A model generated the notes under the pieces. That model saw only the letters and a list, made by a program, of their open reading frames with translations, ran no database searches and was not told the origin of the DNA. A stretch of DNA of 64,000 nucleotides from a virus. Taxonomy: Duplodnaviria > Caudoviricetes. The stretch is taken from positions 64,001-128,000 of the IMG/VR virus record IMGVR_UViG_3300035686_000002; one strand, given 5' to 3'. The position numbers were made by a program, and so were the translations under genes. Shown one piece after another: positions 25,595 through 53,222 of the stretch (its first letter is position 1; every line of letters starts with the position of its first letter).

Positions 25595-25784
25595 GCGAGA
25601 GATAATTGGCATAGACTATAGATGAGTTTGTTACTCAATTTTTTATGTTTTATAATATTCTTGCGTGACAAACTCATCTATTATATTTCTTGCTCTGCCT
25701 GTATCCTGTTTGTAGAGGTTGCTTTAGTTTTGAAAATAAGAATTAAAACAGCCTCAACAAGTGGAATAGATAAATTGCTCTCGC
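25595..25784 (+). repeat. Dispersed ~190-bp nested-palindrome element, copy 1
   Basis: GCGAGAG...ATAGATGAGTTTGTTACTCA..TGCGTGACAAACTCATCTAT...GTAGAGGTTG..CAGCCTCAAC...CTCTCGC. Confidence 0.9.
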
Positions 25785-25813
25785 ATCAAAATCGTGTCAA
25801 CACTCAGAGACAA

Positions 25814-26007
25814 GCGGGCGAATAAAAACTCTCTGGTGTCTCTATAGTTGAGTCCGTCACGCAGATAAATCTATTACTATAGATCGTTTGATTGACAAAC
25901 TCCACTATTCTAACCTCGTCTCTATAATATTTCTCACTGCTCAGGCTGTTCAAACCGATTAACGAACACAACAAGAGAAACAAGCATCCTATTTCTACTT
26001 TTGCGCC
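25814..26007 (+). repeat. Dispersed element, copy 2 (degenerate, tandem to copy 1)
   Basis: ATAGTTGAGTCCGTCACGCA..TGATTGACAAACTCCACTAT core at 25844-25908. Confidence 0.6.
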
Positions 26008-26043
26008 GATCGCACCGACGCAACAGCAGCAAAAAATAGGCTG

Positions 26044-26367
26044 TTAGTACCAGTCTCTTCCTCGGCATTCTTTTATTTTTCTTTCTGTTGGGATATAGAA
26101 ATCAGTAGATTCCAATTCTTCCGACTCTCCCGGAGTTTGAGATTCAATCGTGTTAAACGTAGGGTGAAATATTGTCAAATAGAGAAACTCTTCTTCTTCA
26201 CTTGTTATTCTGAAATTGCAACCTGCTTTAAGGTATGCCCAACAAATTCCAAGTTGCTCTTGAGCAGCAGGGGTATCTCTATCCATCCATTTGTCAACTT
26301 GAACAATCCCTTGCTCGCACAAGGCAATCAATCTTTTTCTAATATTATCCTTTTGTTGATTATCCAT
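26044..26367 (-). CDS. Hypothetical protein
   Basis: 107-aa ORF coupled to 26374..26721. Confidence 0.6.
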   Translation of the reverse strand: MDNQQKDNIRKRLIALCEQGIVQVDKWMDRDTPAAQEQLGICWAYLKAGCNFRITSEEEEFLYLTIFHPTFNTIESQTPGESEELESTDFYIPTERKIKECRGRDWY

Positions 26368-26373
26368 TCTTGC

Positions 26374-26721
26374 CTACCTTTGGTTGAAATGTACTATATC
26401 GCGCTTAAGCTGTTGCAAGCTATCTTCAAAAGTTGCCATTCTCGTTTCAAGTATGGCAACACGCTGGTCTACTTGATTATTAGTTCGATCCTTTATCAAA
26501 CTTATATCCACTAAGGCTTTGCCTTGGGTATACGAACGGGACGATATACCATCCCTAGCACATATGCCATCATTAACAGCCAACTCTTGAATAAGCCGCC
26601 GGACTACTTGATGCGGTGATTCGCCGTCTATAGCTTGTGCCTTGATCCACTCATATAACAATGGATGCACCCGAAAGCCGATTGTAGGTGAATCATTATC
26701 TATTGATTTTTTTTCACTCAT
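26374..26721 (-). CDS. Ribbon-helix-helix-like DNA-binding protein with C-terminal coiled coil
   Basis: TIGFRVHPLLYEWIKAQA...SPHQVVRRLI. Confidence 0.6.
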   Translation of the reverse strand: MSEKKSIDNDSPTIGFRVHPLLYEWIKAQAIDGESPHQVVRRLIQELAVNDGICARDGISSRSYTQGKALVDISLIKDRTNNQVDQRVAILETRMATFEDSLQQLKRDIVHFNQR

Positions 26722-26974
26722 AAGTTTTGACTGGAGCTAATAACTTTACTTATGCTAACACAAATCGCAAACATTGTTTACGTCAACTTACAATAATGTG
26801 CCAGTTTTCTTAAAGTTATACCCTGACTACGTTTCAGTTGTGTGCCAATTTATTTTAAAATTTGTTTGCAAAATGTTGACAAACTGCAAACATACTGCTA
26901 ACGTAGTAAACATAAGGCAAACGGAACCAACGCAAACCGCATTGCCCCTCACTTCACGCAAAAGTAAAAACAAA

Positions 26975-27298
26975 ATGATCGACGCAATGATGATTCAATT
27001 GGCTCTTCAAGGAATGCAAACAGCTAAGACTGCAAATTTCGACACAGCAATCGGTGAACAGCAACGGATGGGCTGGTGGTGGAAAAGCTACATTGCTAAC
27101 CGTCATTGTATGGAAGTAATGGTCTACCTCGATAAAACCTCGCCAACCGGATTCATGTTAGAGGTCGATTACATTGATGAGGACGCGGTGACAATCCTCA
27201 ATAAGCCCCTCGCTACTTTTGAGGAATTCCAAGAACTCTTTACTAATAAAAAATTCCTTGCAACCGCATTCAGAGCTTGGAAGAAAGAAAAAAAATAA
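26975..27298 (+). CDS. Hypothetical protein (likely start MIDAMM)
   Basis: ORF 26774..27298. TTGACA at 26876 and an A-rich leader point to the internal ATG. Confidence 0.55.
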   Translation: MIDAMMIQLALQGMQTAKTANFDTAIGEQQRMGWWWKSYIANRHCMEVMVYLDKTSPTGFMLEVDYIDEDAVTILNKPLATFEEFQELFTNKKFLATAFRAWKKEKK

Positions 27299-27394
27299 CC
27301 ACTCTGCCCCTCGCCTAGGGCGCACCCGCGCCCATCCATCTACTCCACTTGCCTCACTTCAAAGACTCACTTCACTACACCACAGGAAAATACC

Positions 27395-27979
27395 ATGCAA
27401 TTACTCAACACCAAATTCAACCAAATCGCTACAGCAATCGAAGCGACTAACGCCCAGATTGCAGCCTTACAAGCCAAGCTTTCGGAACTTCAAGAACATC
27501 AACAGCAACTACTCTCAGTCGAGCAAGCTTGCCAGTCCGCACTCGCCCAAGTTGGCACTGCACTTTCAATGCTCAACCACGTAGACCCCGCCGAAATCCC
27601 TACATTCAAGGCAGCGGTTGACGCACAATTTGGAACCGACGCGATTGGATTCTTGGAACCCGCCACACCTGCACCAGAGGAAACAGTCGAACCAATCGAA
27701 CCAGAACCGACACCACCGGAATCATCAACCACAGCAGAAATTAAGTCAGCGATTGAAGTAGAAGCGACTGTCACAGATACACCCACCACTGACGAGTTGA
27801 TTGAGTCAACACCCACACCATCGGCAAAAATTGAATTACTACTCGGTAAAATGTCTCTCGCCGACATCCGGAAGCTCGCCAAAAACAAAAAGGTAAACGC
27901 ACGGGGAAACCTGCTTACTATCGCAGCGAGGTTAAAAGCAATCGTCACAGAGTCCGATATCTGGGATGCTACGACATAA
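27395..27979 (+). CDS. Coiled-coil protein with C-terminal Rho_N/SAP-like helix-extension-helix
   Basis: N-terminal heptads, P/E/T-rich linker, MSLADIRKLAKNKKVNARG...IAARL. Confidence 0.65.
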   Translation: MQLLNTKFNQIATAIEATNAQIAALQAKLSELQEHQQQLLSVEQACQSALAQVGTALSMLNHVDPAEIPTFKAAVDAQFGTDAIGFLEPATPAPEETVEPIEPEPTPPESSTTAEIKSAIEVEATVTDTPTTDELIESTPTPSAKIELLLGKMSLADIRKLAKNKKVNARGNLLTIAARLKAIVTESDIWDATT

Positions 27980-28077
27980 CTTCTAATTCTATTGCTTCGC
28001 TGACTCTCTTAGGCGAGGCAATAGCAAGTGGTATATCAGTTCTTCCAAGCCTATAAACCTTTATTTAGGACAAAGCA

Positions 28078-28368
28078 ATGACAGAAATACCTAATGTTTA
28101 TTTTAGTGACAATCTATTACAAATGGTCGGCAAAAAGTTTCTTAAAGAAATAAGTACAGACGATGCCACGAGAATCTTAGAAATCTTAAAGAAACACGGA
28201 GATGAAAATTTAATCGACAAATGGGTCTCTGTCAATATAGTTGCTGGAACAGCAAGAGGACGTGCTGCAATGAATCAATTAGAAAAAGAGTATCGAGAAA
28301 AAGTTAACAGGAAGGGGAAGACGAGCGGCGATTGCCTTGAGCCTCCCGGCGATCATGACACAAACTGA
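28078..28368 (+). CDS. Hypothetical protein (inserted moron)
   Basis: AGGA RBS. Flanked by a duplicated 3' end of the upstream gene. Confidence 0.6.
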   Translation: MTEIPNVYFSDNLLQMVGKKFLKEISTDDATRILEILKKHGDENLIDKWVSVNIVAGTARGRAAMNQLEKEYREKVNRKGKTSGDCLEPPGDHDTN

Positions 28369-28530
28369 TATTTGGAAAGCTACGACATAGACTTAGTGAC
28401 TAAAATGAGAAAAATACGGTAGAAACACAGCACTTTGTTTCTACCGCATTTTTACAGCAGGTTTAGCAATATTCTCAAACTTCAACTTGCTTAGTGACAA
28501 GCCTGAGAAACTCGGATCTTCAGATTTAAA

Positions 28531-28720
28531 GCGAGAGCTGATCGATATGGGCTTATAGATGAGTCTGTCACTCAGTTTTTTATATTCTATATACTTTTTG
28601 ATTGACAGACTCATCTATTGTTTCTTCGATTATATCTACGTCTTGACTGTAGAGACTGTTTAATTTTTAAAAAAGAAATCTAACCAATCTCAACAACTGG
28701 AATGGATAAATTGCTCTCGC
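28531..28720 (+). repeat. Dispersed element, copy 3
   Basis: GCGAGAG...ATAGATGAGTCTGTCACTCA..TGATTGACAGACTCATCTAT...CTCTCGC. Confidence 0.9.
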
Positions 28721-28801
28721 ATCTAAAGCCTGCTGATTGAAAATTTGACATGAATGGTTTATATTTATTAAACTCCAAGAACTCAAAGAAAACAGAAAAA
28801 C

Positions 28802-29137
28802 ATGGCTAACATAACAACAGGGGAAACTAAATTTCAGAAAAGAACTATCGCCCTTGCCTGCGCTGAACAACGGGTGACAGTAGAATTAACAATAGAACGA
28901 AAAGCCCTCAATCATGAATATTTGGATTTTGTCGAAGCTTGCAAAGAAAAGTCAAGGGCTAAACCAGGAAAAGTAATTATAGCTGGTGACGACGGTGTTA
29001 GTGTCATTACAGTGAACGGTCAAACTTGGTATATGAGAGTTGATCGAGTTAAAAGACTTTGGTTTGCCTCTAATGGCTTAGTTGAAGCCAAACCGAAAAC
29101 CACTAGACGCGCTCTAGTTCAATCTTTACTCATTTAA
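28802..29137 (+). CDS. Hypothetical protein
   Basis: Preceded by TTGACA(28745)-18 bp-TAAACT and followed by a terminator. Confidence 0.65.
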   Translation: MANITTGETKFQKRTIALACAEQRVTVELTIERKALNHEYLDFVEACKEKSRAKPGKVIIAGDDGVSVITVNGQTWYMRVDRVKRLWFASNGLVEAKPKTTRRALVQSLLI

Positions 29138-29169
29138 TTGCTGAAAAACCAACCGATTAACCGAAACTT

Positions 29170-29192
29170 GCCCCCAAGCCGGGGGTTTTTAT
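29170..29192 (+). terminator. Rho-independent terminator
   Basis: CCCCC-aagcc-GGGGG-TTTTT. Confidence 0.65.
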
Positions 29193-29333
29193 TGCAATAC
29201 TGTTTAGTGGCTAAAGCATTAGACTGAGAACAAACAAAGCGCCAAGTTTCTGTTCAAAAAGTATTACACAATATTTCGCGATAAAATAACCCAATTGTGT
29301 TAATATGTTAGTATTGCTTTTCTGACAAAAAAC

Positions 29334-29552
29334 GTGAATTTTTTTTTAAAGCTGTTCCAGCCTAAAACATCTAATCCTGACAAATGCACAAAAGAATCAA
29401 CAGACCCAACAGAATCAAAAGAATCAGTTGAAAATAATTCGGATCTCAATGCTGATTCAACTATTTCTCACTATTCTGTCAGCCCTGGTGCAGAATCAAT
29501 TAGTCAAGTAACACTTGATTACCGAGGTCGCGCTAAATTGCACGGACAATAA
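29334..29552 (+). CDS. Small protein ending in a major-capsid-identical peptide
   Basis: PGAESISQVTLDYRGRAK versus capsid PGAQMLTQVTLDYRGRAK. Confidence 0.65.
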   Translation: MNFFLKLFQPKTSNPDKCTKESTDPTESKESVENNSDLNADSTISHYSVSPGAESISQVTLDYRGRAKLHGQ

Positions 29553-29693
29553 AAATCCGTGCCTGTACTTTTTAATGCACCCGCCTCTGGTTTGATACTG
29601 AAATCAATCGTAACCAAAGTTACGAGCGCGGGTGTATTTCGTCAAGTCAGCCAGCGGGTGACACAAACGGTTAAATACAAACCAAAGGTTATG

Positions 29694-30164
29694 CTATTTT
29701 ATTTTTCTCTGCATTCGTCCAAAAGGAAAACATGAGTCTAGGATTGCTTCTAGTGGCTCGCAATCAGAGACGGGAATATATTTTGGGAAACGACGATGTA
29801 AGATAGCTTCATTTTCACCTGTTTCATCCCAAGACCTTTGTTCTACAAAAACAATTTTGTCTAGCCGATCAGATTCTAAATTGAAAAACCTAACAGCAGC
29901 ATTGCTAGCGCAAAAACCAAGTGCGTCAATAATATCTCCGACATTATATTTTGTCCACGATAAGTCTACTGTGGGTATTTTGTCATACAAGTAAACCACA
30001 GGACTTGTATAATTCCACATCCGCTGTTCAACAAAAACAATCTTGTATGACTGTTCTATCTCGAAATCGTAAAAATTAACAATGTCAGTACGATTACATT
30101 TAATAAGTGTATTGATTAATTGTTCGACATTTAAACCTGTAGTATATTGTTTGATTACTGACAT
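29694..30164 (-). CDS. Hypothetical protein with two internal repeats; paralog of 55999..56316
   Basis: xNV(E/G)xLI(N/D)xL...V(N/R)F(Y/F)...KIVFVEQR occurs twice. Confidence 0.65.
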   Translation of the reverse strand: MSVIKQYTTGLNVEQLINTLIKCNRTDIVNFYDFEIEQSYKIVFVEQRMWNYTSPVVYLYDKIPTVDLSWTKYNVGDIIDALGFCASNAAVRFFNLESDRLDKIVFVEQRSWDETGENEAILHRRFPKYIPVSDCEPLEAILDSCFPFGRMQRKIK

Positions 30165-30177
30165 TTATTAATGACTC

Positions 30178-30531
30178 CTAAAATGAAATATGTGCCTTTT
30201 GACCTTTTTGTTGAAGTTGATTAATTTCCCCAAGTTCGATTGGTCGATCTAATACCTTCCCGTAATACCGCAAAATTATAGAAAGCGCAGTATTTGGAAC
30301 CCAAGTCAGAGAAAAGGTACTAGGCTCGAATCCCTTGTCTGAGAGCGCTTGGGATAGTCTATTGTCGCTTCTAAATACTTCCGTAAAATAAACACCTGCC
30401 AAACGTGATACCCTTTCAATTGACAAAAACACTTTTCCAGTGCTATCAACTCGAAATTCATTACAGATTTCATCTGGAATGCGTATAACTGGCATCATAG
30501 ACCTAAAAGTATATTTGTCAATCTCTAACAC
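30178..30531 (-). CDS. Putative antirepressor-like DNA-binding protein
   Basis: EFRVDSTGKVFLSIERVSRLAGV...ALSIILRYY, loosely similar to the N-part of 53343..54428. Confidence 0.45.
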   Translation of the reverse strand: MLEIDKYTFRSMMPVIRIPDEICNEFRVDSTGKVFLSIERVSRLAGVYFTEVFRSDNRLSQALSDKGFEPSTFSLTWVPNTALSIILRYYGKVLDRPIELGEINQLQQKGQKAHISF

Positions 30532-30847
30532 TCTATTGTTGTCCTAAGTTTTTATATTTTTAAGAAGAGTCAGTCAATACCTATTACATTATAACTATTT
30601 TAAATTAAAAATAATCAAAATCCACTAAATTTATAAATAATAAACCCCTACACTCCTAATTTTGGTCACTAATAGGTTTAATGTCAAGACATCTACGGGC
30701 ATCTTTAAAGCGCAAGTGTGGGCGTGCTTAATTGAGTTAGCTAACAAGTTTTGCGGATGACAGAGTGGTGAACCGAGAGTAATTATACATGAAAACTTCA
30801 GCTTGCTTGCTAACAAGTCTAGACGATTTCGGTTTTTAAATTTAAAA

Positions 30848-31038
30848 GCGAGAAGTATTTGGGCTGTTATAATAGATGAGCTTGTCACTCAGTTTTCTAT
30901 ATTCTATAATCTTTTTGCGTGACAAACTCATCTATTATACCTTCGACTATATCTACGCTTTGGTTGTAGGGTTTGCTTTAGTTTTGCACAAGAAGATCAC
31001 ACCAGTCTCAGCAAGTAGAATAACTAATTTGCTCTCGC
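30848..31038 (+). repeat. Dispersed element, copy 4
   Basis: GCGAGA...ATAGATGAGCTTGTCACTCA..TGCGTGACAAACTCATCTAT...CTCTCGC. Confidence 0.9.
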
Positions 31039-31072
31039 CTCAAAACCTGATTGTCACACAAATGTTGAAACG

Positions 31073-31480
31073 TTAAAACTGAGAGCAAGCAAATCGCCAA
31101 ATTGCTGCTGCTACTGTATCCTTTGCGGGAATAGCAGGGGTTCTGTCTGCACGACTCAAGGGAATCTGTCGAGTTGGAGAACCTTGGGCATCCACGACCT
31201 CGACTCCCTGCAATGCTAGCGTCCCTTTGAAACAGTCGGCTTGGTATCGGACGCCCCTTAGCAGTATTCCATCAGAAGAGACTGTGACAGTGCGAAAGGT
31301 GTTTTTCTTGACACCTGTATCGAACAATCGCATCTGAGACGCAAGATCCATGAAGATTTGGTCGCCAGTTTCGATAGTGGTTACTCTTACCCATTGCTGA
31401 GGTGCGCTCTGAGCTTGAATTGTTGCTGCGACAGCGAGGCTCAATACTGAGAGTGCGATTGTTTTGATTAATTTGTTCAT
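31073..31480 (-). CDS. Secreted/periplasmic protein with Sec signal peptide
   Basis: MNKLIKTIALSVLSLAVAATIQAQS signal, QWVRV, paired Cys (ADC...FAC). Confidence 0.7.
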   Translation of the reverse strand: MNKLIKTIALSVLSLAVAATIQAQSAPQQWVRVTTIETGDQIFMDLASQMRLFDTGVKKNTFRTVTVSSDGILLRGVRYQADCFKGTLALQGVEVVDAQGSPTRQIPLSRADRTPAIPAKDTVAAAIWRFACSQF

Positions 31481-31510
31481 TTTATATATTGGTTTAATAC
31501 GGGATTAATT

Positions 31511-31557
31511 GAATCTCTCAACAGTCTGAGAGGAAACTTCCAGACTGTTGAGAAATT
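31511..31557. terminator. Inverted repeat/terminator
   Basis: TCTCAACAGTCTG...CAGACTGTTGAGA. Confidence 0.6.
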
Positions 31558-31559
31558 GA

Positions 31560-32021
31560 CTACCTACTGTACAATTCGTCAATATCGTCGCGATTAAATT
31601 TTAAGCCACGCTCAATTTCGTCCTGAGTCCATTTTAAAACGTGAGGGTTGACAGTGCCGATTGTCATCAGTTCGTAAATCCAAACATTGACATCTGCCTG
31701 AAACTCAGGATTACTCATTGCATAGCTCATTGCTAGCGCTGGGTGTATCCACATTTTCTGTCCACGTCCAGGAATAAAATCGATCAAGGGCGTTTGATTT
31801 TGTGTACGGGAATCCCCGTAGTCAACTGGAAGCCTTAAGTTCTCAGCAAGCCGAGCGATGAGTCTGGTTGCAAATTTTGTCCTACGCCAATCTGAAAATG
31901 TTTGATTTAGGCAGGCTGTCATGTCTGTGGCACAAAAATATCCGTCTTTACCCCGGATTTCAATTTTTCGCCCGTTGTACTCTGGAAATTGGTCAAACCA
32001 CGATATCATTAATTTAGACAT
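31560..32021 (-). CDS. KilA-N domain DNA-binding protein
   Basis: YNGRKIEIRGKDGYFCATDM...FSDWRR...WIHPALAMSYA...PEFQADV. Confidence 0.85.
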   Translation of the reverse strand: MSKLMISWFDQFPEYNGRKIEIRGKDGYFCATDMTACLNQTFSDWRRTKFATRLIARLAENLRLPVDYGDSRTQNQTPLIDFIPGRGQKMWIHPALAMSYAMSNPEFQADVNVWIYELMTIGTVNPHVLKWTQDEIERGLKFNRDDIDELYSR

Positions 32022-32169
32022 TGGCTCTCCGTCTTAGAGTCGAGTGTTTAGTTAGGGTGATCGCGCCAAACGATCTTCCTAACGCTATTTTATCAAAACG
32101 CAAAAATATAATCTATAAGTTTTACACAAGATCATAAAACAGGGAGATAACTGGCTCAATAGTCTAAAT

Positions 32170-33366: not shown

Positions 33367-33505
33367 GTACTGATATTCTTTTGTTTAAAACTATTTCTTT
33401 TTGCTTTTTAGGTGGCGTTAAGTTGTCTGGTTCTTCCGCTGAATCCATAAAACGCTCTATCCGAAAACGTTTTAATTGTTCTTTTGGGACTGTTTTGTCC
33501 GTCAT
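33344..33505 (-). CDS. 53-aa ORF convergent with and overlapping the ART gene, below the ORF-track cutoff
   Basis: AGGAG RBS. MTDKTVPKEQLKRFRIERFMDSAEEPDNLTPP... Confidence 0.5.
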   Translation of the reverse strand: MTDKTVPKEQLKRFRIERFMDSAEEPDNLTPPKKQKEIVLNKRISVPNILPTE

Positions 33506-33784
33506 AAAGCTCCTATTGGACAATTCGCATATTTATAAAACTTATTATAACATTTACTAATTTTACTTTTGTATCTTATGTGTAATTCACGCAGATATTC
33601 TTATTGGTCAGGCAGCCAATTAGGAGTCTTACTCAATTTCCAAAAGCCTATTTCGGTAGCAAGACCCGATGAAGCGTCAAAAATCATCGGGGCTAAAGCC
33701 GCAGTGAGTATGTCAGAGCGGTGTTTTTATGTCTTAGAAGACTATTATTGATGGGTCTGGTAATCTCGATATTCAGATCGAGAA

Positions 33785-33975
33785 GCGAGACAACACTCAG
33801 ATATTTTTATTGTTGAGCTTGTTACTCAGTTTTTTATAATTTATAATCTTTCTGATTGACGAACTCATCTATTGCATTCTCGATTCTATATATCTTGTGA
33901 CTGTAGAGGTTGTTTAAATTTTGAAATCAGAAATCAAACCAGTCTCAACAAGTGGAACAGATAAATTACTTTCGA
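33785..33975 (+). repeat. Dispersed element, copy 5
   Basis: GCGAGAC...ATTGTTGAGCTTGTTACTCA..TGATTGACGAACTCATCTAT...GTAGAGGTTG..CAGTCTCAAC...CTTTCGA. Confidence 0.85.
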
Positions 33976-34012
33976 TTCAAAAGCCGATAACCAGCGACGA
34001 TCGTTGAGTGGT

Positions 34013-34588: not shown

Positions 34589-34666
34589 TTAACGTAAGCA
34601 AATGACAACTATTTTTTAAGAGATATCTTTGGGATTTTCTGTTGACAATCTCAGTTTTAAGTTCTA

Positions 34667-35059: not shown

Positions 35060-35101
35060 TTTAGTAATAATTCTTTGAACTACAAAATATTTAATTGTAT
35101 T

Positions 35102-38100
35102 TTAACTTATATAATCAATAACTGCGTAAAAACTTTTTGACAATATTGCACTAGAGTTGCCCGTCTCATTAGTCAAGCTAAAGTTTGTTGCGTCAGTAGC
35201 CCAATAGCTACCACATCCGGGTTGTCTAGATCCAAAAGGTAGATTTCCAGTAGCACTATAATAAATGACTCCAACAACGCTTATTATTTTGGCAACGTTT
35301 ATACCATGTGCAACGTTTACAGCTCCCCCTTGAGCTGCACTTGTCGTTCCGCTAATTAATTTCTTTTTAATGGCTACATTATCGCCTAAGAGAGTAAAAC
35401 CTCCAGTATATTGATTTCCTTGAACAGCTTGTCCTCCACTAACTATATGCGCGCCAGTCGTAGTTGAAGTTGATTGAGTTCCATTTGTAATCCGGGTAAC
35501 ACCTGTAAAAGTTTTTTCGCCTCCAACCGTCTGATTCTCTGTTGTATTTACTTGCAAATGGTTTGTAAGATTTGGTAATCCAATCTGTGCTGCTGTTGTT
35601 CCGTGAGGGTTTCCTGTCTCTTGAGAATGTAAATAAGCTATATTTCCAAAGTCACCGCGATAGGCACTGGCAGAGGTTGTTCCTAAGGCTAAAGATGCTG
35701 ATATTTCAACATACGCACTTCCTGACCATCGGTAAGTTATATTAGTAGTAGTTGCTACATAAATTTTTCCTGTTTCTCCTGTAGTAGGAAAATTCACAAG
35801 TGCCGCAAATTCAAGAACATCATCAACAAAACCAGGTAATTGCACTGCCGGGACAACGCCATTTACCAATGATGCAAAATTGCTGCTAGCAATTGCTTCT
35901 GGCGGCCCTGCTGTTGCACCTCTTCCCCACAAGGTATTTGCTGGCAACGTACCGGGAAACCCAGCCATAACCCCCCAACTCGTACCGCCTAGCGAAGATA
36001 AAATAAAGCTTTGATGTTGCACCGCCAAAGGTAAAGTTAATGCACCGTTGATAGTGTCACTACCAGACCTGGAAATAGTAACCAAATTTGCCGACGCATC
36101 AGACTTGCGAATCTCTACCACCCAACCACTGCCAACAGTCGCAGCAGCAGGCAAGGTTATTGTGATTGTCGCCGATGTAGCATTGACATCAATTAATTGG
36201 CGTTGATTAGCAGTCGTGAGCGTTGTGTTCGTCGAAACCCCTAAATACCCAAAAACGGTAATTGGGTCTGTGCCGCCAACGTTGTGAGTGCTAGCGTGAG
36301 CGGTGGGAGTTCGTGCGTTGGAGTAAGCTGAATCTGCTGCGTCTCGAATTTGTCCTGCACTATTCCCTATTGCCCGTAACGCTGCCGCACCTAACCCGAG
36401 TGTAGTTCGAGCTTCAGTTTGAGTCGTATCGTCAAGAAGTGTCCGAATAAAAGCACCTAATTGAACAATGGCAGCGCTGCCACCAGCAGTTCTTTCAATT
36501 AATCCAGCCGTTGACAAAAGTTCGATTGCTTGAATAACAGGTGAAGCATTTGATTCAAATAAAGATTTACGGTAAGCGGGTATGCAGCCATCAGCGGTAG
36601 TTTGCCTGATTCGGGTGCATTGTGTTCCCGACAAAAACGAGTAAGCGATCGCAACTTGATAAGTTCCAATTGGCAAACTCCCACCAATAGCAGATCCCGA
36701 AACCGTAGGCGGATCGAACAAACAAAAATCAGTAAACGGTGGCGCGGTAGTAGCTGCAACTACGGTAGTATTTGTCAAATCTACAACATTAAATATTTGC
36801 GTAGTGTCAATTACTACTGGTTGAGGTGAATTAAGCCTGTAAATTGTAGATCCTTGCTTGATATAGATCCGAACTTGCGGAGGATTAAAATGGGCTTTGG
36901 TGTTTCCAGCAATTTCAGGAATCCCCGATCTTACCATTCCAAAAGCGCCGCTTACCGGATAGGTTGCGGTGATAGAAATTCCACCAACGGAACTCAATAC
37001 AATATTGTTGCTCCAACCCGATGCTACCGATTCGCCAGTACCAAAATCAAACAAAGCAAGTAAAGCTTCACCTCCTGAAAGCGCCGTTACCCCGGCAACG
37101 CCGCGAACCACAGCGCGACCGTCTTGAGTGATCGCTAGCTGCTGATTTAAGGTATTTGGGGCGATCTGGGCGATCGTTTGTTTGGGCTGTAATGCCGACT
37201 CATGACCCCTAACTACAAACAATCCCGGTAGTACATTCAAAGTTCCATCGCCGGGAACCACGCGACCAAAATCAGCAATCGGTGCAACAAAACCTCCCAC
37301 GCTTGTCTCAAAAATCGAAGCTAGAGGAACCCGAACGCCACCTTGGGGTAACAAGATTGGAACAATCGAGATGACACTACCTTGCACTAGCGGCGGGTAT
37401 ATCTCGGACGCACGGAACCGAGGGAAGATTTTAAAAACCGCTTTCTGATTTCCTGGTAAGGTTTTAGATATTGCCAAAAATCCCGTTTCAGCATTGGTTT
37501 GCGTTAAATCAACGCCGATTCCTGCCATGTCTGCGCCGTCGTTCAACCCCGAGTCATTGTCAAGAATTCCGGTTGCCGAATTGTAGAAGCCCAAAAATCT
37601 AACAACAATTCGTCGATCAAACAACGTAGTCGCAGGGAACCCGTCAACCTGCACGTTCAAACCAAATCGAGAACCAACGGCGATATCATCCCCGGTGTCC
37701 GATCCGAAAAATACGGTTAATCCTTTGGCATTAGTTGCTATTAAATCTGTGTTGTCGGCTGCGTCATAGTTTACGTCGCCAAACAATAGATTTTGTGCGA
37801 GAAATTCTTCATCAACGGCGACAAGCGGACGGCAAGCGCCTGTGTCTCCAAAAATGTCGCCGCCGATAGGAAACAGCCCAAAATTGGGATTACCAAACCG
37901 CACCCAATATTCACCGGGCGATCGTTCAATTACTTTGTCGCCGTCAACCGCATGGCGAAAATAGGGAGAATTCGGATCGGTAATCAGCCACGGGTAGTAT
38001 ATATAGTAAGATGCACCGCTGGCAACTCCCCCACTAACTAGCCGCACCATGCCGGGAACCAAGCTAACCCCCGTAGGTAATCCGGCAGGCAAACTGACGG

Positions 38101-41795: not shown

Positions 41796-41861
41796 ACAAA
41801 AAATAGCTAAAGTTCAGTCTACTCCAATTATCAATGCTTCTAAGTTGAACAGTTAACAAAG

Positions 41862-43381: not shown

Positions 43382-43412
43382 TGTTCGCCTAATCTAGGTA
43401 GGTGGACGGCCG

Positions 43413-46172: not shown

Positions 46173-46176
46173 TTTT

Positions 46177-46893: not shown

Positions 46894-47699
46894 GCTTGAG
46901 CTGGCGCAATAGAGTTAATTTGTTCAATTGAGCGCTCAGGATTAAATTTAACTTTAAGCCTGTGAGTTTTGTCCATACCTCGCCGTTTTAACGCTGCTTC
47001 AATAGCAGCATTAGCTAACAACACGATTTGCAACGGATTTTTTTGATGTGTCATATCAGGGTGATTTCTGTAAAAATACAGAAATTCATGGATATGGCTA
47101 ATGCGAGTAATTTCAGATATACGAAGGCACAAATCGTAATCCTCCATCCGATCAAACTTCAAGTCAATTCCGCCAACCTGCTCGTAAACTGATCGACGCA
47201 TCAGCCTAAAGTGAAATGTCATAAAGACACAGAGCAGTTTTTCTGCTGAGTAGTCATAACTACAGCGCCAGCCCGGTCTTAACTGCGTTCCGTCTTCATC
47301 TACTTCGATGTAATTGCTGTAGACCATTCCGCAGCCAGCGTCATCATCTAATACTGCTACCATGCGCTCGATCGCCTGCATATCAAGCCAGTCGTCGGAA
47401 TCAACCTGCCCAATGTATTCACCCCGCGCTAATCCATATCCCGCCTTGAGCGCTTGGGCTGCACCTCTTTCGGTTTCTTGGGTTCTATCCACCTTCAAAG
47501 CAAGCAGTCGCACCCGATCGTCCTCCATCGCAAACTGCTCGGCGATTGCCAGTGTTCCGTCAGTCGAACCATCGTCTACAATAATCAGTTCAAGATTGCG
47601 GTAAGTTTGGTCAAGAACCGATTTGACAGCGATGCCGACGTATTGTTCTCGGTTGTAGACTGGAATAATAATAGAAACCCTAGGCGCATTTTCTTTCAT
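46890..47699 (-). CDS. Glycosyltransferase family 2
   Basis: VSIIIPVYN, IIVDDGSTDGT, QVDSDD (DxD), EDYDLCLR. Confidence 0.93.
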   Translation of the reverse strand: MKENAPRVSIIIPVYNREQYVGIAVKSVLDQTYRNLELIIVDDGSTDGTLAIAEQFAMEDDRVRLLALKVDRTQETERGAAQALKAGYGLARGEYIGQVDSDDWLDMQAIERMVAVLDDDAGCGMVYSNYIEVDEDGTQLRPGWRCSYDYSAEKLLCVFMTFHFRLMRRSVYEQVGGIDLKFDRMEDYDLCLRISEITRISHIHEFLYFYRNHPDMTHQKNPLQIVLLANAAIEAALKRRGMDKTHRLKVKFNPERSIEQINSIAPAQA

Positions 47700-47703
47700 A
47701 TTG

Positions 47704-47925
47704 TCAACAATCTTGTAAAATATCCATTAATTTTTCTGCAAGCTCGTAAATTAAGTTCTCAATTTCATCTAAAGCTTCTTTGCCAGCAAAGTCTGAACGA
47801 TGATTAATTTTCGTTGCGTATCTAACATAACGAGCTTCACGTCGCAATTCGTTTATACAACATTGTATAATGTTTGCGTCTGCACTTCCATCTAATAAAA
47901 GTTTCCGAGCCACATCTATAGTCAT
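47704..47925 (-). CDS. Hypothetical protein
   Basis: 73-aa ORF coupled upstream of the GT2 gene. Confidence 0.5.
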   Translation of the reverse strand: MTIDVARKLLLDGSADANIIQCCINELRREARYVRYATKINHRSDFAGKEALDEIENLIYELAEKLMDILQDC

Positions 47926-48265
47926 TTAATTGGATTGATTTATTGGCGTCGTTTTTTACGTCAACAGGTTAACGTCTCGCTGTTGTAGCAAAAAACGACG
48001 CCATTGATTATTACATTTTGCTCCTACTGTTTACAAAGTGTTATCGTTTTGTTCTAGGAATTTTATTCGGATCTACAACGATTTCATCTTCCTCTGTTGG
48101 AAAATCTTTTCGATTAGGTTTTTCCTTGGGAGTTTCTTCAGGTTTTTTCTCTGTCATGATATTTGCACCCTAATTTCCTGTAAAGTTAAGACCTGCTTGT
48201 GCTTGCATTTTTGCATTACACAGCAGATCAAATAAGCTTACTATATAATTTTAAGCGCAAATCAC

Positions 48266-49108
48266 ATGAAACGCATATTTTTAGTCGGCGCGCCCCGCAG
48301 TGGGACTACAATTTTGCAAAGTCTGCTTGCGGCACACCCGCTAATCACCAGTTTCCCGGAAACTAAGTTTTTTCACTACTTGCTCACGGATGGGCTTTCC
48401 CAGAAACTACCCGATCGTCTCTACAAATTCTTTCACAAAGAAATTAACCGCCCCGATTTTTTAGAAAACGCCCCAGACCTACACCCTCCGTTAATGAGCA
48501 ACAGGGTCAGGTGGTTCGTTGAAGTGCTTGATAAGCTGGCGATCGAACAGAAAAATGACATTTGGCTAGAAAAAACCCCAGAACACGTCGGTTTTATTCC
48601 AGACATTCTTCAATACCTGCCAGAAGCAAAATTTATCCATATCGTGCGACACCCGCTGGACGTTGTAGCTTCCATGCGAGCGGCAACTAAAAACCCACTG
48701 TCAAACATTCTGTGGGGCGGAGAATGGACGCTGGAGTTCTGTGTCCAACGTTGGAACGACGCAGCACTCATCAATCATGCGTACTCGCACCAGCCAGAGC
48801 AGCACTTAGTTGTCCGATATGAAGGTTTGTTGCGGGACAAAACTGTGTTTCTGTCAAAATGCTGCCATTTTATTGGCGTCGAGTTCGATCACGAAATGTT
48901 GTCGAACTATAAAGCAGAGGGGCTGCGGTTGGGGTTGCGGTTGCCGTGGCACGAAGGGATTGATCGGGCGATCCAACCTCCAGCGGTTGCGAAATGGAGG
49001 CAAAGTCTCAGCAAGCAGGAAATCAAGTATATCCTCAGAGCAACAGAAGATTTGCGATCGCGCTTTGGCTATATGTATCCAAGCCCAGAAAATCCTGAGC
49101 TAGAGTAA
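48266..49108 (+). CDS. PAPS-dependent sulfotransferase (Sulfotransfer_3 type)
   Basis: 5'-PSB loop FLVGAPRSGTT, LEKTP, 3'-PB motif IVRHPLDVVAS, VRYE. Confidence 0.92.
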   Translation: MKRIFLVGAPRSGTTILQSLLAAHPLITSFPETKFFHYLLTDGLSQKLPDRLYKFFHKEINRPDFLENAPDLHPPLMSNRVRWFVEVLDKLAIEQKNDIWLEKTPEHVGFIPDILQYLPEAKFIHIVRHPLDVVASMRAATKNPLSNILWGGEWTLEFCVQRWNDAALINHAYSHQPEQHLVVRYEGLLRDKTVFLSKCCHFIGVEFDHEMLSNYKAEGLRLGLRLPWHEGIDRAIQPPAVAKWRQSLSKQEIKYILRATEDLRSRFGYMYPSPENPELE

Positions 49109-49109
49109 C

Positions 49110-49352
49110 TTAGTTCTTCCAAAACAACCAAGCAGAGCAAATATGGGCAATACTCATCCCTATAGCTGCCCCAGGAATCATAGCTAATACTGTTCCTAAC
49201 ATAATTTCATCTTCGCTAAGAAACCGTGCCTGAGAAGCCATGAAATAAATAATCGCACACTGAAATGCAATAAATATCAGGTTAACAATCGTTGTCTTGA
49301 CTTGGAGTTTATGGATATTGTGATCAATTTCTTATAGTCTTTTGTTAGTCAT
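49110..49352 (-). pseudogene. Two-TM membrane protein gene with a nonsense codon at position 7
   Basis: MTNKRL*EIDHNIHKLQVKTTIVNLIFIAFQCAIIYFMA...IMLGTVLAMIPGAAIGMSIAHICSAWLFWKN*. Confidence 0.55.
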
Positions 49353-49499
49353 TAAGATTTTCCTATTTTATTTTAATTTCAATTTACATATTTATTGTAA
49401 GTGTTTATCATATAAGTGTCAACACTTGTTGGAATAGGTTTTGTTTAATTTTTTAGTAGAATAGTAGATACACCAAACTGTTAAACAAAAATTTAAATA

Positions 49500-49997
49500 A
49501 TGAAAAACACTATTGTAGCCTACGAATATTGGGACGCAGAATTAAAGAACCAATCTAAGAAACGGCTAGCAGGATTAGAAAAAGCGATAACTGCAACAGG
49601 GGCTATTGTCACAGATAGGCACGAAGAGAAATATTTTGAAGGCAAACTGCAATGGCGAAACCCATTACTGTTGAAAGTTCGATTACCCAAAGGAAAACGC
49701 TGGGAATTCATTCTCGTCTCTGGATGTACGGTATGGCTAGCTCAACCGCCACGGGTTCAGATAGGGTTGCGAGATACGGCGGGCAGATTTAACGGCACAA
49801 GATACTGGGATTCTCCAGCTATTCCGCTACGAGGAAACCACGACGACGCAAAGATTCGGCGGCGGTATCGGTTACACCCAGAACACGCGGCGTATATTGC
49901 CGATTATAAACCTGAATTAAACGGAGGATATGAGGTGATCAAAGGTGCTGATATTGTATCGACGGTGCTGGGAGGAGATTTAGGCTTGTTGCTCTAA
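49500..49997 (+). CDS. Hypothetical protein
   Basis: 165-aa ORF. Confidence 0.6.
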   Translation: MKNTIVAYEYWDAELKNQSKKRLAGLEKAITATGAIVTDRHEEKYFEGKLQWRNPLLLKVRLPKGKRWEFILVSGCTVWLAQPPRVQIGLRDTAGRFNGTRYWDSPAIPLRGNHDDAKIRRRYRLHPEHAAYIADYKPELNGGYEVIKGADIVSTVLGGDLGLLL

Positions 49998-50065
49998 TTT
50001 GCCGATTGCACAAACGAAATCTGTGATTGTGATACTATTGCCCTAAAGTTCTCACAGAAAAGACT

Positions 50066-50533
50066 ATGAGTAATATTAAGGAACGACGCCAAATTAACCA
50101 GAGAGGGCTGGCACTCATCAAAGAATTTGAAGGTTGCCAACTAGAAGCTTACCTGTGTCCCGCCGGAGTCTGGACGATTGGGTACGGACACACTCTATCG
50201 GCGGCTCACGGGATGTCGATTGACGAGACTAAAGCAGAAGCGCTGCTGCGGGAAGATTTGCAGGAGGCGGAAGAAGCGGTAGATCGGTTGGTCACAGTCC
50301 CGATCAATGAGAATCAGTTCTCGGCGTTGGTATCGTTTGCCTTCAATGTTGGCGCGGGCGCGTTGCAAGAATCAACTCTGCTGTCTTTGCTCAACGCTGG
50401 TGCAGAAGTTGAGACGATCGCCGCTCAATTTTTGCGATGGAATAAAGCAGGTGACGAGGAATTAGCCGGATTAACCCGTCGCCGTCATGCCGAGCGAGCA
50501 TTGTTTTTAGAACCTGTAGATCCAATTCTATAA
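50066..50533 (+). CDS. Phage lysozyme/endolysin (GH24)
   Basis: EGCQLEAYLCPAGVWTIGYGHT, ALVSFAFNVG, LAGLTRRRHAERALF. Confidence 0.95.
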   Translation: MSNIKERRQINQRGLALIKEFEGCQLEAYLCPAGVWTIGYGHTLSAAHGMSIDETKAEALLREDLQEAEEAVDRLVTVPINENQFSALVSFAFNVGAGALQESTLLSLLNAGAEVETIAAQFLRWNKAGDEELAGLTRRRHAERALFLEPVDPIL

Positions 50534-50551
50534 AACTTACCTAAAACTACT

Positions 50552-50602
50552 TTACAGTTTGAAGCGTCGTTAACTTAAAGTTAGCGGCGCTTCAAACTGT
50601 AA
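50552..50602. terminator. Long hairpin, likely bidirectional terminator
   Basis: TTACAGTTTGAAGCGTCGTTAAC...GTTAGCGGCGCTTCAAACTGTAA between convergent genes. Confidence 0.7.
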
Positions 50603-50623
50603 TATTAATTAATATTACGATAC

Positions 50624-51142
50624 TTAAACGCGATTAAACCACTCTGGATTTTCTGCCATACGTTTTTCCGTATCTTTCCGACAGAATTCTTCAACACGAT
50701 CGGCTGAAACTCCACTTAAGTGCCACCCCTTTAAACCTTCTTCGCTAAGCAAATATGTTTCATTCTGCGCGATATCCAAAAAAGAGTCACTTTTTAAGAC
50801 AAGATACTCAATCTTTCCACCAGAAAAAGCTCGCACTTTGTTTTGTAGCTCAGTTGCCGATAATTCTTCATTTGTCATTTGAACACTCCTTGATTTATTC
50901 GTCTCTTCTACTCTTTCAGTATGTATCATACAACATACTCTGTCAAGATGTTTCTGAAAGATTTTTCTAACGTACTCTGATCGGCTTACCCCGTCCGGGA
51001 TTGAAGCTTCCAACGCGTCTGACATTTCTGCGTCCAACCAAACTTCCCACTTAACCCGCTTATTTCTGTATGTTGCGATCGCCTGCTGCCGCGCTTGTCT
51101 GCCTTTCGAAGTTAGTTCGTATCGCTTTTGTTTTGTCGTCAC
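50624..51142 (-). CDS. Small RHH-like DNA-binding protein running through a promoter into a second ORF (MTNEEL..., start 50878)
   Basis: KRYELTSKGRQA...SRSEYVRKIF. Internal minus-strand TTGACA at 50946-50941 and AGGAG RBS before the internal ATG. Confidence 0.5.
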   Translation of the reverse strand: MTTKQKRYELTSKGRQARQQAIATYRNKRVKWEVWLDAEMSDALEASIPDGVSRSEYVRKIFQKHLDRVCCMIHTERVEETNKSRSVQMTNEELSATELQNKVRAFSGGKIEYLVLKSDSFLDIAQNETYLLSEEGLKGWHLSGVSADRVEEFCRKDTEKRMAENPEWFNRV

Positions 51143-51233
51143 AATGTCACCTTAATCCAAATCTTGATACATACTAGACGAAATCCGAGTTGTTTTCGGA
51201 CAGACAGGGTAGTCTCGCTCATCCAATTAAGGA

Positions 51234-51385
51234 GCGAGGGTTATTTTGTTTTTTCTTATAGATGAGTCTGTCAATCAGTTTTTTATATTGTATAATCTTT
51301 TTGATTGGCAGACTCATCTATTGTATTTTCTATTCTGTAAAGCTCTTGACTGTTTAGACTGGTTAGATTTTCTGTTTAAGAAGTT
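51234..51385 (+). repeat. Dispersed element, copy 6 (3'-truncated)
   Basis: GCGAGGG...ATAGATGAGTCTGTCAATCA..TGATTGGCAGACTCATCTAT. Confidence 0.85.
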
Positions 51386-51466
51386 CAGCTAAATTTTTAG
51401 TAATCCTGTCTTGACGACATAAACACTTTATGTTAAACTGCTATCAAAGTTTAAAAAAGTAAAAAC

Positions 51467-52489
51467 ATGACTTGGAACAATGAGACAGCTATCAACGACT
51501 TACTAGCGCTACCTTCTGACACTGTAAAGGTTGTTGCCTTTAGTGGAGGGAAAGACTCTACAGCGTTGCTCGGTTTAATGCTTGCTGCTGATCGCCAAGG
51601 CTTGAAAAACTGGAGAGTGATCAACTCAGATACTTTAATGGAAATCCCTTTTTTGGAGGAACACGTTAAAGCTTGTGGTTCTATCCTTGAAGAAAAAGGT
51701 ATTCAATTTGAGAGAGTAACAGCACCGATGCAAAGACGGTTTTTTTACAGTTTGATAGGCAAAGGGATACCCTCTCCCAGTCGTAATTTTCGATGGTGTA
51801 CGCAAGCTCTAAAGATAGACCCATTAGAAAAAGCACTAAAAAATATTCCATCCTATTTATTATTGAACGGAGAAAGGTTGGGAGAATCAATCAAGAGGGA
51901 CACAAAGCTTGCCAGTAAAACTTGCGATGGCACAAATGAATGTGGCACGGTAGAGATTAAAAAAAAGATGAAAAATACTGAAATAGTCCGACCTCTATTA
52001 AACGCAACAGCTTGCAATATCTGGGATACCATTGCAGAGAACGATATAGAGAAAGAACTGCTACCGGGAAGCTTCAACAGATTAAACAACGTTTATTCTA
52101 TCAATGATGATGATAACTCTAAAAGTTTGAGGACGGGCTGCATAGGTTGCCCGCTGATAAGCAAAGATAAAAGTTTAGAAAAGTTAATATCAGTGTATGA
52201 AGACTATTCGCCACTGGGTCAGTTAAGAGCGTTGTATGACTCGACTAGAAGCGAGAGCAACCGGATCATGCGTCCTGACATGAAAAGCAAAGGAGCAGTG
52301 AAACTTGAAGTTAGGAAAAAAATTTGGGCTGAAATTCTAGAGATCGAGTCTAAAGTCTGTACCGCCTTCCCAGGGTTCATCCTTGTCCAGCAGGACGAGA
52401 AAGACGCGATAGAGAAAGCTCTCTCAGAAGGGCAATACCCTAAAGGCTACACCCGACAGCACATCCAAGAGCAAGAATCACTCATTTAA
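51467..52489 (+). CDS. PAPS reductase family / DndC-like protein
   Basis: PP-loop AFSGGKDS, SDTLME, RWCTQALKIDP, GERLGES, RTGCIGCP. Confidence 0.88.
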   Translation: MTWNNETAINDLLALPSDTVKVVAFSGGKDSTALLGLMLAADRQGLKNWRVINSDTLMEIPFLEEHVKACGSILEEKGIQFERVTAPMQRRFFYSLIGKGIPSPSRNFRWCTQALKIDPLEKALKNIPSYLLLNGERLGESIKRDTKLASKTCDGTNECGTVEIKKKMKNTEIVRPLLNATACNIWDTIAENDIEKELLPGSFNRLNNVYSINDDDNSKSLRTGCIGCPLISKDKSLEKLISVYEDYSPLGQLRALYDSTRSESNRIMRPDMKSKGAVKLEVRKKIWAEILEIESKVCTAFPGFILVQQDEKDAIEKALSEGQYPKGYTRQHIQEQESLI

Positions 52490-52507
52490 CCCACAACACC
52501 TCCTGTC

Positions 52508-52529
52508 GCCCCTTTTAACGGGGCTTTTT
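52508..52529 (+). terminator. Rho-independent terminator
   Basis: GCCCC-ttttaac-GGGGC-TTTTT. Confidence 0.7.
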
Positions 52530-52543
52530 GTTGAATATCTGAG

Positions 52544-52735
52544 GCGAGAGATAATTTAATCCTTGTAATAGATGAGTTTGTCACTCAGTTTTTTATATTC
52601 TATAATCTTTTTGTGTGACAAACTCATCTATTATAACCTCGACTCTAACTATACTTTACCTGTAGAGGTTGCTTTGATTTTGAAAGCAGGAATTTAAGCA
52701 GTCTTAACAAGTAGAAGTGGCAAATATTTCTTATT
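52544..52735 (+). repeat. Dispersed element, copy 7
   Basis: GCGAGAG...ATAGATGAGTTTGTCACTCA..TGTGTGACAAACTCATCTAT...GTAGAGGTTG..CAGTCTTAAC. The 3' end is eroded. Confidence 0.88.
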
Positions 52736-52746
52736 TTTTGAAAAAT

Positions 52747-52959
52747 TTAATTACTTAGCCTCAAGCAGTGTCCTGTTCTCATAGCACATTCAAACGTGTA
52801 TTTATGTTCAACTGCGTACAGGCTAGCATGGGGGCTTGCAGCTTTCAGTGTTTTGATAGCAACACGATCGTCAAACAAAGCTTTTATTTCAACAGTCCTG
52901 TTGTTGATGTTGCCATCACCATAATTGAATTCAAAAACATCGCCAATATTTAATTTCAT
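52747..52959 (-). CDS. Small hypothetical protein (MKLNIGDVFEF...)
   Basis: The longer ORF call (to 53115) starts inside repeat copy 8, so the internal ATG is more plausible. Confidence 0.5.
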   Translation of the reverse strand: MKLNIGDVFEFNYGDGNINNRTVEIKALFDDRVAIKTLKAASPHASLYAVEHKYTFECAMRTGHCLRLSN

Positions 52960-53030
52960 TAGATTTAATCTTGATAATTTATTTGACACAATACTAACAA
53001 ACAAGGCGGTTCCAGTCTTCGGAGTAAAAA

Positions 53031-53222
53031 GCGAGAGATCGATCAGCGTTTCGTTATGGATGAGTCTGTCACTCAGTTTTTTATATTCTATAATCTTTCT
53101 AATTGACAAACTCATCTATTCTGTTCTCGATTGTATATACCGTCTACCTGTAGAGCTTGATCGATTTTTGAAAACACGAATTAAAGCAATCTCAACAACT
53201 GGAATGAACAAATGACTCTCGC
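53031..53222 (+). repeat. Dispersed element, copy 8
   Basis: GCGAGAG...GATGAGTCTGTCACTCA..TAATTGACAAACTCATCTAT...CTCTCGC. Confidence 0.9.

Follow-up and report, generated by a model that had tools for sequence, protein, structure and literature searches.

What could hold a non-coding repeat to one internal geometry while it recurs at two dozen places in a single phage genome? The question is raised by a 64,000-nucleotide stretch of viral DNA (the window), comprising bases 64001–128000 of the record IMGVR_UViG_3300035686_000002, in which a first-pass annotation had described eight copies of a nested-palindrome element. The whole source genome (G000; 151,712 bp, 93% complete and 41.6% G+C in IMG/VR) is that of an uncultured, siphovirus-like phage, unrelated to T4. 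Its portal protein is closest to that of Synechococcus phage S-CBS4 (32%) and then to that of Aphanizomenon phage CL131 (27%), and a cyanobacterial host is likely. The sole sequencing run that contains DNA of the phage is a biocrust DNA metagenome, from which the contig itself may derive.

The explanation that we favour, and consider somewhat probable, sees the element as a regulatory cassette dispersed through the genome of this cyanosiphovirus-like phage, with a sigma-70-type promoter as its core and similar in kind to the promoter-early stem-loop (PeSL) cassettes of T4-type myoviruses. On our reading of the sequence, the promoter would be the primary function of the element.

The element is a module of fixed geometry

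The repeat family was recovered both by repeat finding, which gave 6–7 copies of 117–182 nt, and by MAFFT alignment of the eight reported copies. An nhmmer profile built from seven of the window copies matched all eight that had been claimed, with E values of 1e-47 to 1e-65 except for the degenerate copy 2 (39 bits), and located 24 copies across G000, 18 on the + strand and six on the − strand. One relative, IMGVR_UViG_3300018984_000003 (G001; 109,786 bp, 92% complete), was recovered by a two-arm DNA pattern. It carries at least 20 copies, and its blocks that align with G000 are 65–85% identical, mostly 70–80%; only 99 of the 188 open reading frames (ORFs) of G000 have a homologue in it. No second relative was found in IMG/VR, which was searched with DNA patterns, single proteins and a portal alignment. 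Statistics for the family are taken over 44 copies from both genomes.

The module is conserved, non-coding and 140–195 bases long. Its parts follow the same order in all copies: the box GAAGCGAGAG, about 17 variable nucleotides, a left arm with the sequence (TA)TAGATGAGTCTGTCACTCAG, the T-rich loop TTTTTTATATTCTATAATCTTTCT, a right arm, about 25 weakly conserved nucleotides, CTGTAGAGnTTG and finally TTnAnTTTTG. Conservation across the family peaks in the core of the right arm, GACAAACTCATCTATT, which corresponds approximately to +4 to +19 of the predicted transcript; this motif is absent outside the copies in both genomes. In the long form, represented by 21 of the 44 copies, there follow a partner of the GTAGAG box and then the inverse box CTCTCGCTTC; the 10-nt inverted end box is confined to these copies. 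Short-form copies diverge after TTTTG, and about a third of them meet a GC-rich, often bidirectional terminator 13–20 nt further on. Most copies have no terminator of their own. The parts are located as follows in copy 5, which serves as the reference.

33765..34001, + strand: copy 5, long form
33782..33791, + strand: 5′ box GAAGCGAGAG (profile columns 18–27, 80–99% conserved over the 44 copies)
33809..33829, + strand: left arm, including a −35-like hexamer at 33819–33824
33842..33847, + strand: TATAAT (−10-like) in the T-rich loop, from the promoter scan
33852..33872, + strand: right arm with core GACAAACTCATCTATT, from profile conservation
33901..33912, + strand: CTGTAGAGnTTG box, left arm of hairpin 2, kept even in copies without the partner
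33940..33951, + strand: right arm of hairpin 2, long form only
33969..33978, + strand: inverse 5′ box, consensus CTCTCGCTTC, long form only

Spacing is nearly invariant, even over stretches in which the sequence varies freely. The start-to-start distance from GAG to CTC is 49 bp for pair 1 in 36 of 43 copies and 38 bp for pair 2 in 12 of 14, confirming the earlier observation that the second span is 11 bp the shorter, and the right arm lies 42 bp from the CTGTAGAGnTTG box in 32 of 36. We read the alignment as showing a single 10-bp motif, GWWGAGKYTG, that occurs four times in alternating orientation: as the two arms, as the GTAGAG box and as the partner of that box. The outer GCGAGAG and CTCTCGC ends, the 20-bp arms around a TATAAT loop and the weaker second pair had all been described in the first-pass annotation, and all are seen in the alignment. 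They are not complete in every copy, since copy 6 is without the right-hand half and the right box of copy 7 is decayed. Similarly, the strong conservation of spacing stands, but the length given for complete copies, 190–192 bp, was too narrow: the measured values are 190–198 bp, and a few copies reach 209 bp.

A sigma-70-type promoter is predicted in the left arm and loop

The left arm and the loop together form (C/T)TGTCA-17-TATAAT, and the internal sites of the window copies are among the best matches in a promoter scan, scoring 10–11 out of 12. Across the family, TATAAT is exact in 27 copies, the spacer is 17 in 35 and the score is at least 9/12 in 34. On the − strand, the mirror site is without the T at −7. 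The TATAAT in the loop had been noted in the first-pass annotation, though it was not treated there as the centre of a sigma-70-type promoter. A Sigma70_r2 domain was not found in either genome; neither was a T7-type RNA_pol domain, a weak negative in that its positive control matched nowhere. With no phage sigma factor or RNA polymerase seen, the predicted promoters would be expected to be those of the host polymerase.

All copies are intergenic. They cluster in accessory regions and avoid the conserved core, and the structural block at 59–89.5 kb is without any copy. According to crude ORF-based gene calls, from which all our counts of gene orientation derive, 16 of the 24 copies in G000 point at a co-oriented downstream gene 16–590 bp away, and many copies are immediately preceded by the terminator of the upstream gene. 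The other window copies and the sites associated with them are as follows.

25581..25809, + strand: copy 1, long form (nhmmer, 200.9 bits), directly after the stop codon of a 2177-aa ORF
25628–25656, + strand: promoter-like TTGTTA-17-TATAAT of copy 1 (promoter scan)
25835..25953, + strand: copy 2, decayed (nhmmer, 39.1 bits), arms and loop only, without 5′ box or 3′ half
28417–28446: bidirectional terminator preceding copy 3
28512..28743, + strand: copy 3, long form (nhmmer)
28745–28774: separate promoter TTGACA-18-TAAACT after copy 3, followed by a + strand gene (promoter scan)
30829..31064, + strand: copy 4, long form, adjoining the 3′ end of the convergent gene 31073–31480(−)
30882–30910, + strand: promoter-like TTGTCA-17-TATAAT of copy 4 (promoter scan)
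51214..51451, + strand: copy 6, core and divergent 3′ part, without inverse box (nhmmer)
51411–51439: TTGACG-17-TAAACT after copy 6, followed by the PAPS-reductase-like gene (promoter scan)
52529..52758, + strand: copy 7, long form with decayed inverse box; a terminator at 52508–52524 lies ahead of it
53013..53248, + strand: copy 8, long form (215 bits), followed by the + strand gene 53373–54428

The genes for KilA-N, ADP-ribosyltransferase and PAPS-reductase proteins that had been placed between copies are supported by Pfam. At the position matching the decayed copy 2, G001 carries an intact second copy.

The conserved unit probably acts as DNA rather than RNA

The arms of the module are predicted to fold with a mean energy of −19 kcal/mol (range −4 to −39 kcal/mol) at a z-score of about −5, z being below −2 in 39 of the 44 copies, and a U-rich tract follows them on the + strand only. 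Covariation was not found. In three helices the pairable fraction equals that of column-shuffled controls (0.828 versus 0.826, 0.726 versus 0.719 and 0.833 versus 0.831), and changes fall mostly in the left arm, uncompensated in the right. The arm position that had been reported to covary does not do so when the 44 copies are considered, the pairs being C-A in 20, T-A in 15, C-G in seven and T-G in one (Fisher p = 0.22). Mismatches favour neither strand, as had been stated, with G-U versus C-A counts of 52 versus 76, 46 versus 32 and 17 versus 14. RNAalifold assigned the transcribed core an energy of zero, whichever strand was folded, and Rfam gave no match at the gathering score, only chance-level matches at E up to 1.

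The lack of covariation, taken together with the fixed spacing, points to a DNA-level array of protein-binding sites and not to a structured RNA. We therefore read the element as a module at the DNA level in which protein-binding sites surround a putative sigma-70-type promoter, and the earlier preference for a multi-site DNA element over an RNA is borne out by the missing covariation, consensus fold and Rfam match and by the constancy of spacing. A protein-coding reading was also rejected: the ORF that begins at the left-arm ATG remains open for only 6–66 codons, starts variously with ATG, TTG or CTG and has no codon periodicity.

Among the alternatives, the one that fares best, unlikely as we judge it, is a multi-copy gene for a small RNA or leader. 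The 5′ end of the transcript, GACAAACUCAUCUAUU, would then serve as a linear seed against a target in the host or a rival phage, or act in cis on RNA polymerase in the manner of put or 6S-type leaders. The position of the most conserved stretch at +4 to +19 of the predicted RNA is in keeping with this, as is the third or so of the short-form copies in which a terminator 13–20 nt after the core would delimit a unit of ~120–130 nt with terminators on both sides; copies in convergent gaps would also make sense as free-standing RNA genes. Nevertheless, neither strand has conserved secondary structure, and the box, left arm and T-run upstream of the predicted start are as conserved as what lies downstream. 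Within the two phage genomes, the left arm of the element itself is the only sequence complementary to the seed, and the lack of a terminator in most copies is a further difficulty.

It is distinctly unlikely that the array docks a single phage protein that both switches the ~24 promoters and promotes exchange between copies without a serine or tyrosine recombinase. Two phage proteins are possible readers of the element, each a weak candidate. One is an Ant-like anti-repressor/transcription-regulator protein (G000 14077–15018(+); PHROG E ~1e-8) and the other has a weak match to a CI-type helix-turn-helix (HTH) domain (G000 137119–137634(+); E 0.002). Both genes are conserved in G001, and each is the first gene downstream of a copy.

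Copies are old and individually constrained

The copies are 70–82% alike in a star-like pattern without young pairs, the maximum pairwise identity being 82%, and positional orthologues are no closer to each other than are paralogues. At 69 of the 142 core columns, identity is ~90% in orthologous and non-orthologous pairs alike, which indicates purifying selection on each copy. A further 35 variable columns are near saturation, with 44% identity in orthologous pairs versus 36% in non-orthologous pairs. Judged from these alignments, each copy is old and individually constrained, and none is a recent transposition; such constraint argues against both recent transposition and decaying selfish DNA.

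These results bear directly on the possibility that the element is the relic of a mobile element akin to miniature inverted-repeat transposable elements (MITEs), the long form, with its 10-nt terminal inverted repeats, having once transposed and the promoter being incidental. We regard this as very unlikely. The ends of the long form, GAAGCGAGAG and CTCTCGCTTC, are each followed inward by a similar GWTGAG motif, as paired transposase-binding ends would be; the copies are dispersed and intergenic, and a TnpB-type insertion sequence is present in each genome. The right end, however, exists in only 21 of the 44 copies, and the star-like relationships and purifying selection described above are not those of a recently mobile family. 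No direct repeats flank the copies, so target-site duplications are absent, and at no orthologous site is the element the sole difference between G000 and G001: where one genome lacks a copy, that copy is part of a larger block difference. An origin as a host MITE is contradicted by the searches. No copy was found in 185,579 prokaryote species genomes, a collection from which the true host may be missing, or in JGI (Joint Genome Institute) metagenome contigs, 12 pattern-matching stretches being chance palindromes that fail the profile; nor was any found in cultured-phage or plasmid collections beyond one chance 43-bp match. The claim that all copies point the same way is correct for the window, where every copy is on the + strand, but six of the 24 in the genome lie on the other strand, and the argument against random MITE insertion that had been drawn from it holds inside the window only.

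The TnpB-type genes (OrfB_IS605 with a Cas12f1-like TNB) are found at 149875–151089(−) in G000 and at ~10.9–11.9 kb in G001. They are 32% identical and occupy different sites, that of G001 being a bare intergenic gap in G000, and the G000 gene is low under a crude codon-usage measure; the two look like independent insertions. A link to the element through a TnpB guide RNA was rejected, as the TnpB of neither genome shows similarity to it.

Genome rearrangements end inside copies

Whole-genome comparison revealed that the 32 kb at 19.8–52.3 kb of G000 is inverted relative to the rest. Copies are labelled here by genome (A, G000; B, G001), position and strand (p, +; m, −). The endpoints of the inversion are the inverted copies at 19,715(−) and 52,211(+), A19715m and A52211p, the flanks of which are swapped with respect to G001 98,402(+) (B98402p) and 79,016(−) (B79016m). 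The switch of flanks falls between the left arm and the GTAGAG box. In B37179m, the upstream flank of window copy 3 is joined to the downstream flank of copy 5, and the 5 kb that separates these copies in G000, with copy 4 and the KilA-N and ADP-ribosyltransferase genes, differs in G001; copy 4 itself has been relocated there together with its abutting gene. B21459m joins the flanks of copies 6 and 8, between which the PAPS-reductase block lies, and B91323p combines flanks of A36317p and A7310m. Besides the 32-kb inversion, the rearrangements with endpoints in copies therefore number four, of which two are deletions or insertions of blocks and two are exchanges of cassettes, and the PeSL-like shuffling to which the element had been likened is upheld by this inversion and the four exchanges of flanks. 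The endpoint copies now share only 11–19 identical bases, which makes assembly chimeras unlikely.

Domains of the Resolvase (PF00239) and Phage_integrase (PF00589) families were absent from both genomes in searches whose positive controls matched, and RecA and YqaJ were not found in either. Given that neither recombinase domain is present, exchange through short homology is to be preferred to a dedicated site-specific system. On our reading, recombination between repeats would be a by-product of their recurrence that makes the accessory genome modular.

The converse, that the copies are dedicated recombination sites of the res, attC or invertase type for programmed shuffling or inversion, strikes us as most improbable, and the res-like mechanism proposed earlier finds neither a resolvase nor an integrase domain in these genomes, which are 92–93% complete. 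It is true that rearrangement endpoints lie inside a palindrome of fixed spacing and that 11–19 identical bases are short for a RecA-type exchange. Yet crossover took place within the longest conserved stretch, as homology-driven exchange predicts, both assemblies hold a single arrangement at uniform depth, and the copies have diverged since the events, so that present identity understates past identity. Annealing proteins of phages, moreover, tolerate sequence divergence (PMC2327257).

Read depth is uniform at ~34–37 over 11.5 kb. Contigs assembled from k-mers of the biocrust run end inside cores of the element, at 28578–28582, 30908–30934 and 33831–33849 of the window, from which it appears that the repeat fragments short-k assemblies of the phage. 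The joints of such contigs are partial matches of paralogous copies and are uninformative on circles or isomers.

A role as architectural, replication, packaging or partition sites (such as bends coated by protein, several origins or arrays resembling centromeres) is a very remote prospect: the AT-rich centre is flanked by repeated motifs at helical-repeat-like spacings and all 11 copies in the right half of G000 lie on one strand, but the left half is mixed (seven + and six −), the copies keep to accessory regions, and GC and AT skews follow the gene strand without a replication signal. The polar packaging or partition sites suggested in the first-pass annotation likewise receive no support, a quarter of the copies facing the other way. 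We know of no described system with 20 or more such 140-bp architectural sites.

Relationship to known dispersed elements

PeSL cassettes are found in the T4-type myoviruses RB49/phi1, T4/PST and KVP40/nt-1, where a repeated motif of ~100 bp combines a sigma-70 promoter with a stem-loop whose position varies and may even be between the −35 and −10 (PMC2839356, PMC4122927). There are ~50 per genome, upstream of ORFans, and recombination between them gives indels, replacements and mini-circles (PMC2839356, PMC4122927). The element shares with them its character as a repeated intergenic composite in which a stem-loop overlaps a sigma-70-type promoter, here a predicted one, its tens of copies and its location in accessory regions; in both cases related phages differ by blocks that end in the motif, and the exchanges look homology-driven. 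The differences are considerable. At 140–195 bp, with 69 near-invariant positions and fixed spacings, the element is larger than a PeSL, its stem is AT-rich with a promoter-bearing loop of 25 nt where PeSL stems are GC-rich, and it has additional conserved boxes at about −70 and +48. Its 3′ end does not supply a Shine-Dalgarno sequence and start codon; what comes next is a terminator belonging to the copy, another promoter or a gene in convergent orientation, and a third of the copies face no gene. Finally, the phage that carries the element is siphovirus-like and unrelated to T4. On this comparison, we take the element to be an analogue of the PeSL and not a homologue.

Dispersed C1 operators are known in phage P1. 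A second precedent is offered by the stoperators of cluster A mycobacteriophages, of which there are 24 in L5 and 34 in Bxb1 (PMC3029335). In these systems, as in ours, a few dozen copies of one protein-binding sequence are scattered between genes, an arrangement that fits one regulator acting on many transcription units. Stoperators, by contrast, are single asymmetric 13-bp sites for a known repressor with uniform orientation to transcription, whereas the element is a putative 140-bp multi-motif array with a promoter of its own and mixed orientation to genes (16 of 24). For a single regulator acting at many scattered sites, dispersed operators such as the stoperators of L5 and Bxb1 would offer the closest model.

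Bacterial repetitive extragenic palindromic (REP) sequences, bacterial interspersed mosaic elements (BIMEs) and MITEs are dispersed intergenic imperfect palindromes, often near the 3′ ends of genes. The element resembles them in this and in the short terminal inverted repeats of its long form. It differs in having an internal promoter, in being found in no prokaryote genome searched and in showing no target-site duplications, insertion polymorphism or young copies.

Other repeats in the vicinity

The gene calls used here span only ~78% of G000, which is low for a phage; repeats, terminators and promoter modules account for some of the remainder. Upstream of + strand genes, at window positions 59083–59152, 60824–60893 and 62384–62453, there is a second repeat family, of ~70 bp. 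It has a perfect TTGACA with TGATAAAT ~20 nt later, and looks like a promoter class distinct from that of the element. Before several genes downstream of copies there is a repeated leader, in which an extended −10 promoter (TGnTATAAT-like) is followed by a short hairpin, TTAAGCCAC-AGGACG..CGTCC; it is seen at about 53290–53340 in the window, at ~14.0 kb and 147.9 kb in G000 and at ~1.1 kb and 21.3 kb in G001. A non-coding module of ~200–300 bp (GGTGTTTGAAGGGG..GATCGGGTTTGATATTTTC .. GCGCCGATCGCCTGCGCTTCAAG) recurs downstream of some short-form copies, at 2000–2630, 6900–7300 and 36470–36900 in G000 and at 91480–91720 in G001. Its last part is a TTGACA-type promoter, and its copies have no conserved reading frame in common.

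Two neighbouring genes contain internal repeats. The 2177-aa ORF (19059–25592) includes six tandem units of 264–285 bp that are 62–75% alike (window 22336–23799), so that its protein would have a repeated domain array. The ORF at 53343–54428, directly downstream of copy 8, has three tandem 57-bp units of 19 codons each (window 53526–53696).

Discussion

We propose that host RNA polymerase reads the (C/T)TGTCA-17-TATAAT core as a promoter set within an array of fixed geometry, in which the box GAAGCGAGAG is followed by three or four alternately oriented GWWGAGKYTG motifs. One DNA-binding protein, of phage or host, would occupy these motifs. The arms would cover the −35 and approximately +4 to +19, classic positions for operators, in which case some 24 promoters would be switched together. 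If the module is transcribed from upstream, the arms may form a stable hairpin, with a U-rich tract behind it on the + strand only, so that the module could also stop incoming transcription and act as a composite terminator-promoter. As the same 60–140 bp recur throughout the accessory regions, copies have served as crossover points, and exchanges at them have inverted the 32 kb and moved, deleted or inserted blocks of genes, as the genome comparison shows.

Several observations weigh against this proposal. The −35 is weak, being CTGTCA in 18 of the 44 copies, and 10 copies score only 8/12. Many long-form copies have a second promoter with a better −35 within the next 5–20 nt, making the internal one look redundant; after several of them, at a distance of 5–17 nt, this separate promoter has a perfect TTGACA. 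The entire loop is conserved, beyond the hexamers, and TATAAT could thus belong to a site of bending or unwinding. Eight of the 24 copies have no co-oriented gene ahead; five or six of these are located between convergent genes and two run antisense within operons, and if active they would give rise to short or antisense RNAs. The comparison between genomes draws on two only, both of them metagenome assemblies. Within it, gene content between copies differs through some blocks exchanged at copies; but junctions of simple gain or loss are common throughout and are not enriched at copies relative to other intergenic gaps (12 of 16 versus 72 of 115, p = 0.41).

With the PeSL-like promoter cassette as the preferred reading, the idea that repeated promoter modules are the points at which accessory genes are swapped would no longer be confined to T4-type myoviruses but would extend to a siphovirus-like phage, uncultured and unrelated to them, from a biocrust metagenome. 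The module is larger and more tightly constrained than a PeSL. Its near-invariant positions and fixed spacings, maintained in 44 copies, represent more information than a promoter needs, and would imply a dedicated binding protein and a genome-wide switch. The 32-kb inversion is a concrete instance of large-scale rearrangement between repeats that now share fewer than 20 identical bases, and bears on the origin of mosaicism in phages. The conserved core may also prove a handy marker for accessory cassettes in this group of phages, such as the KilA-N and ADP-ribosyltransferase block and the PAPS-reductase-like block.

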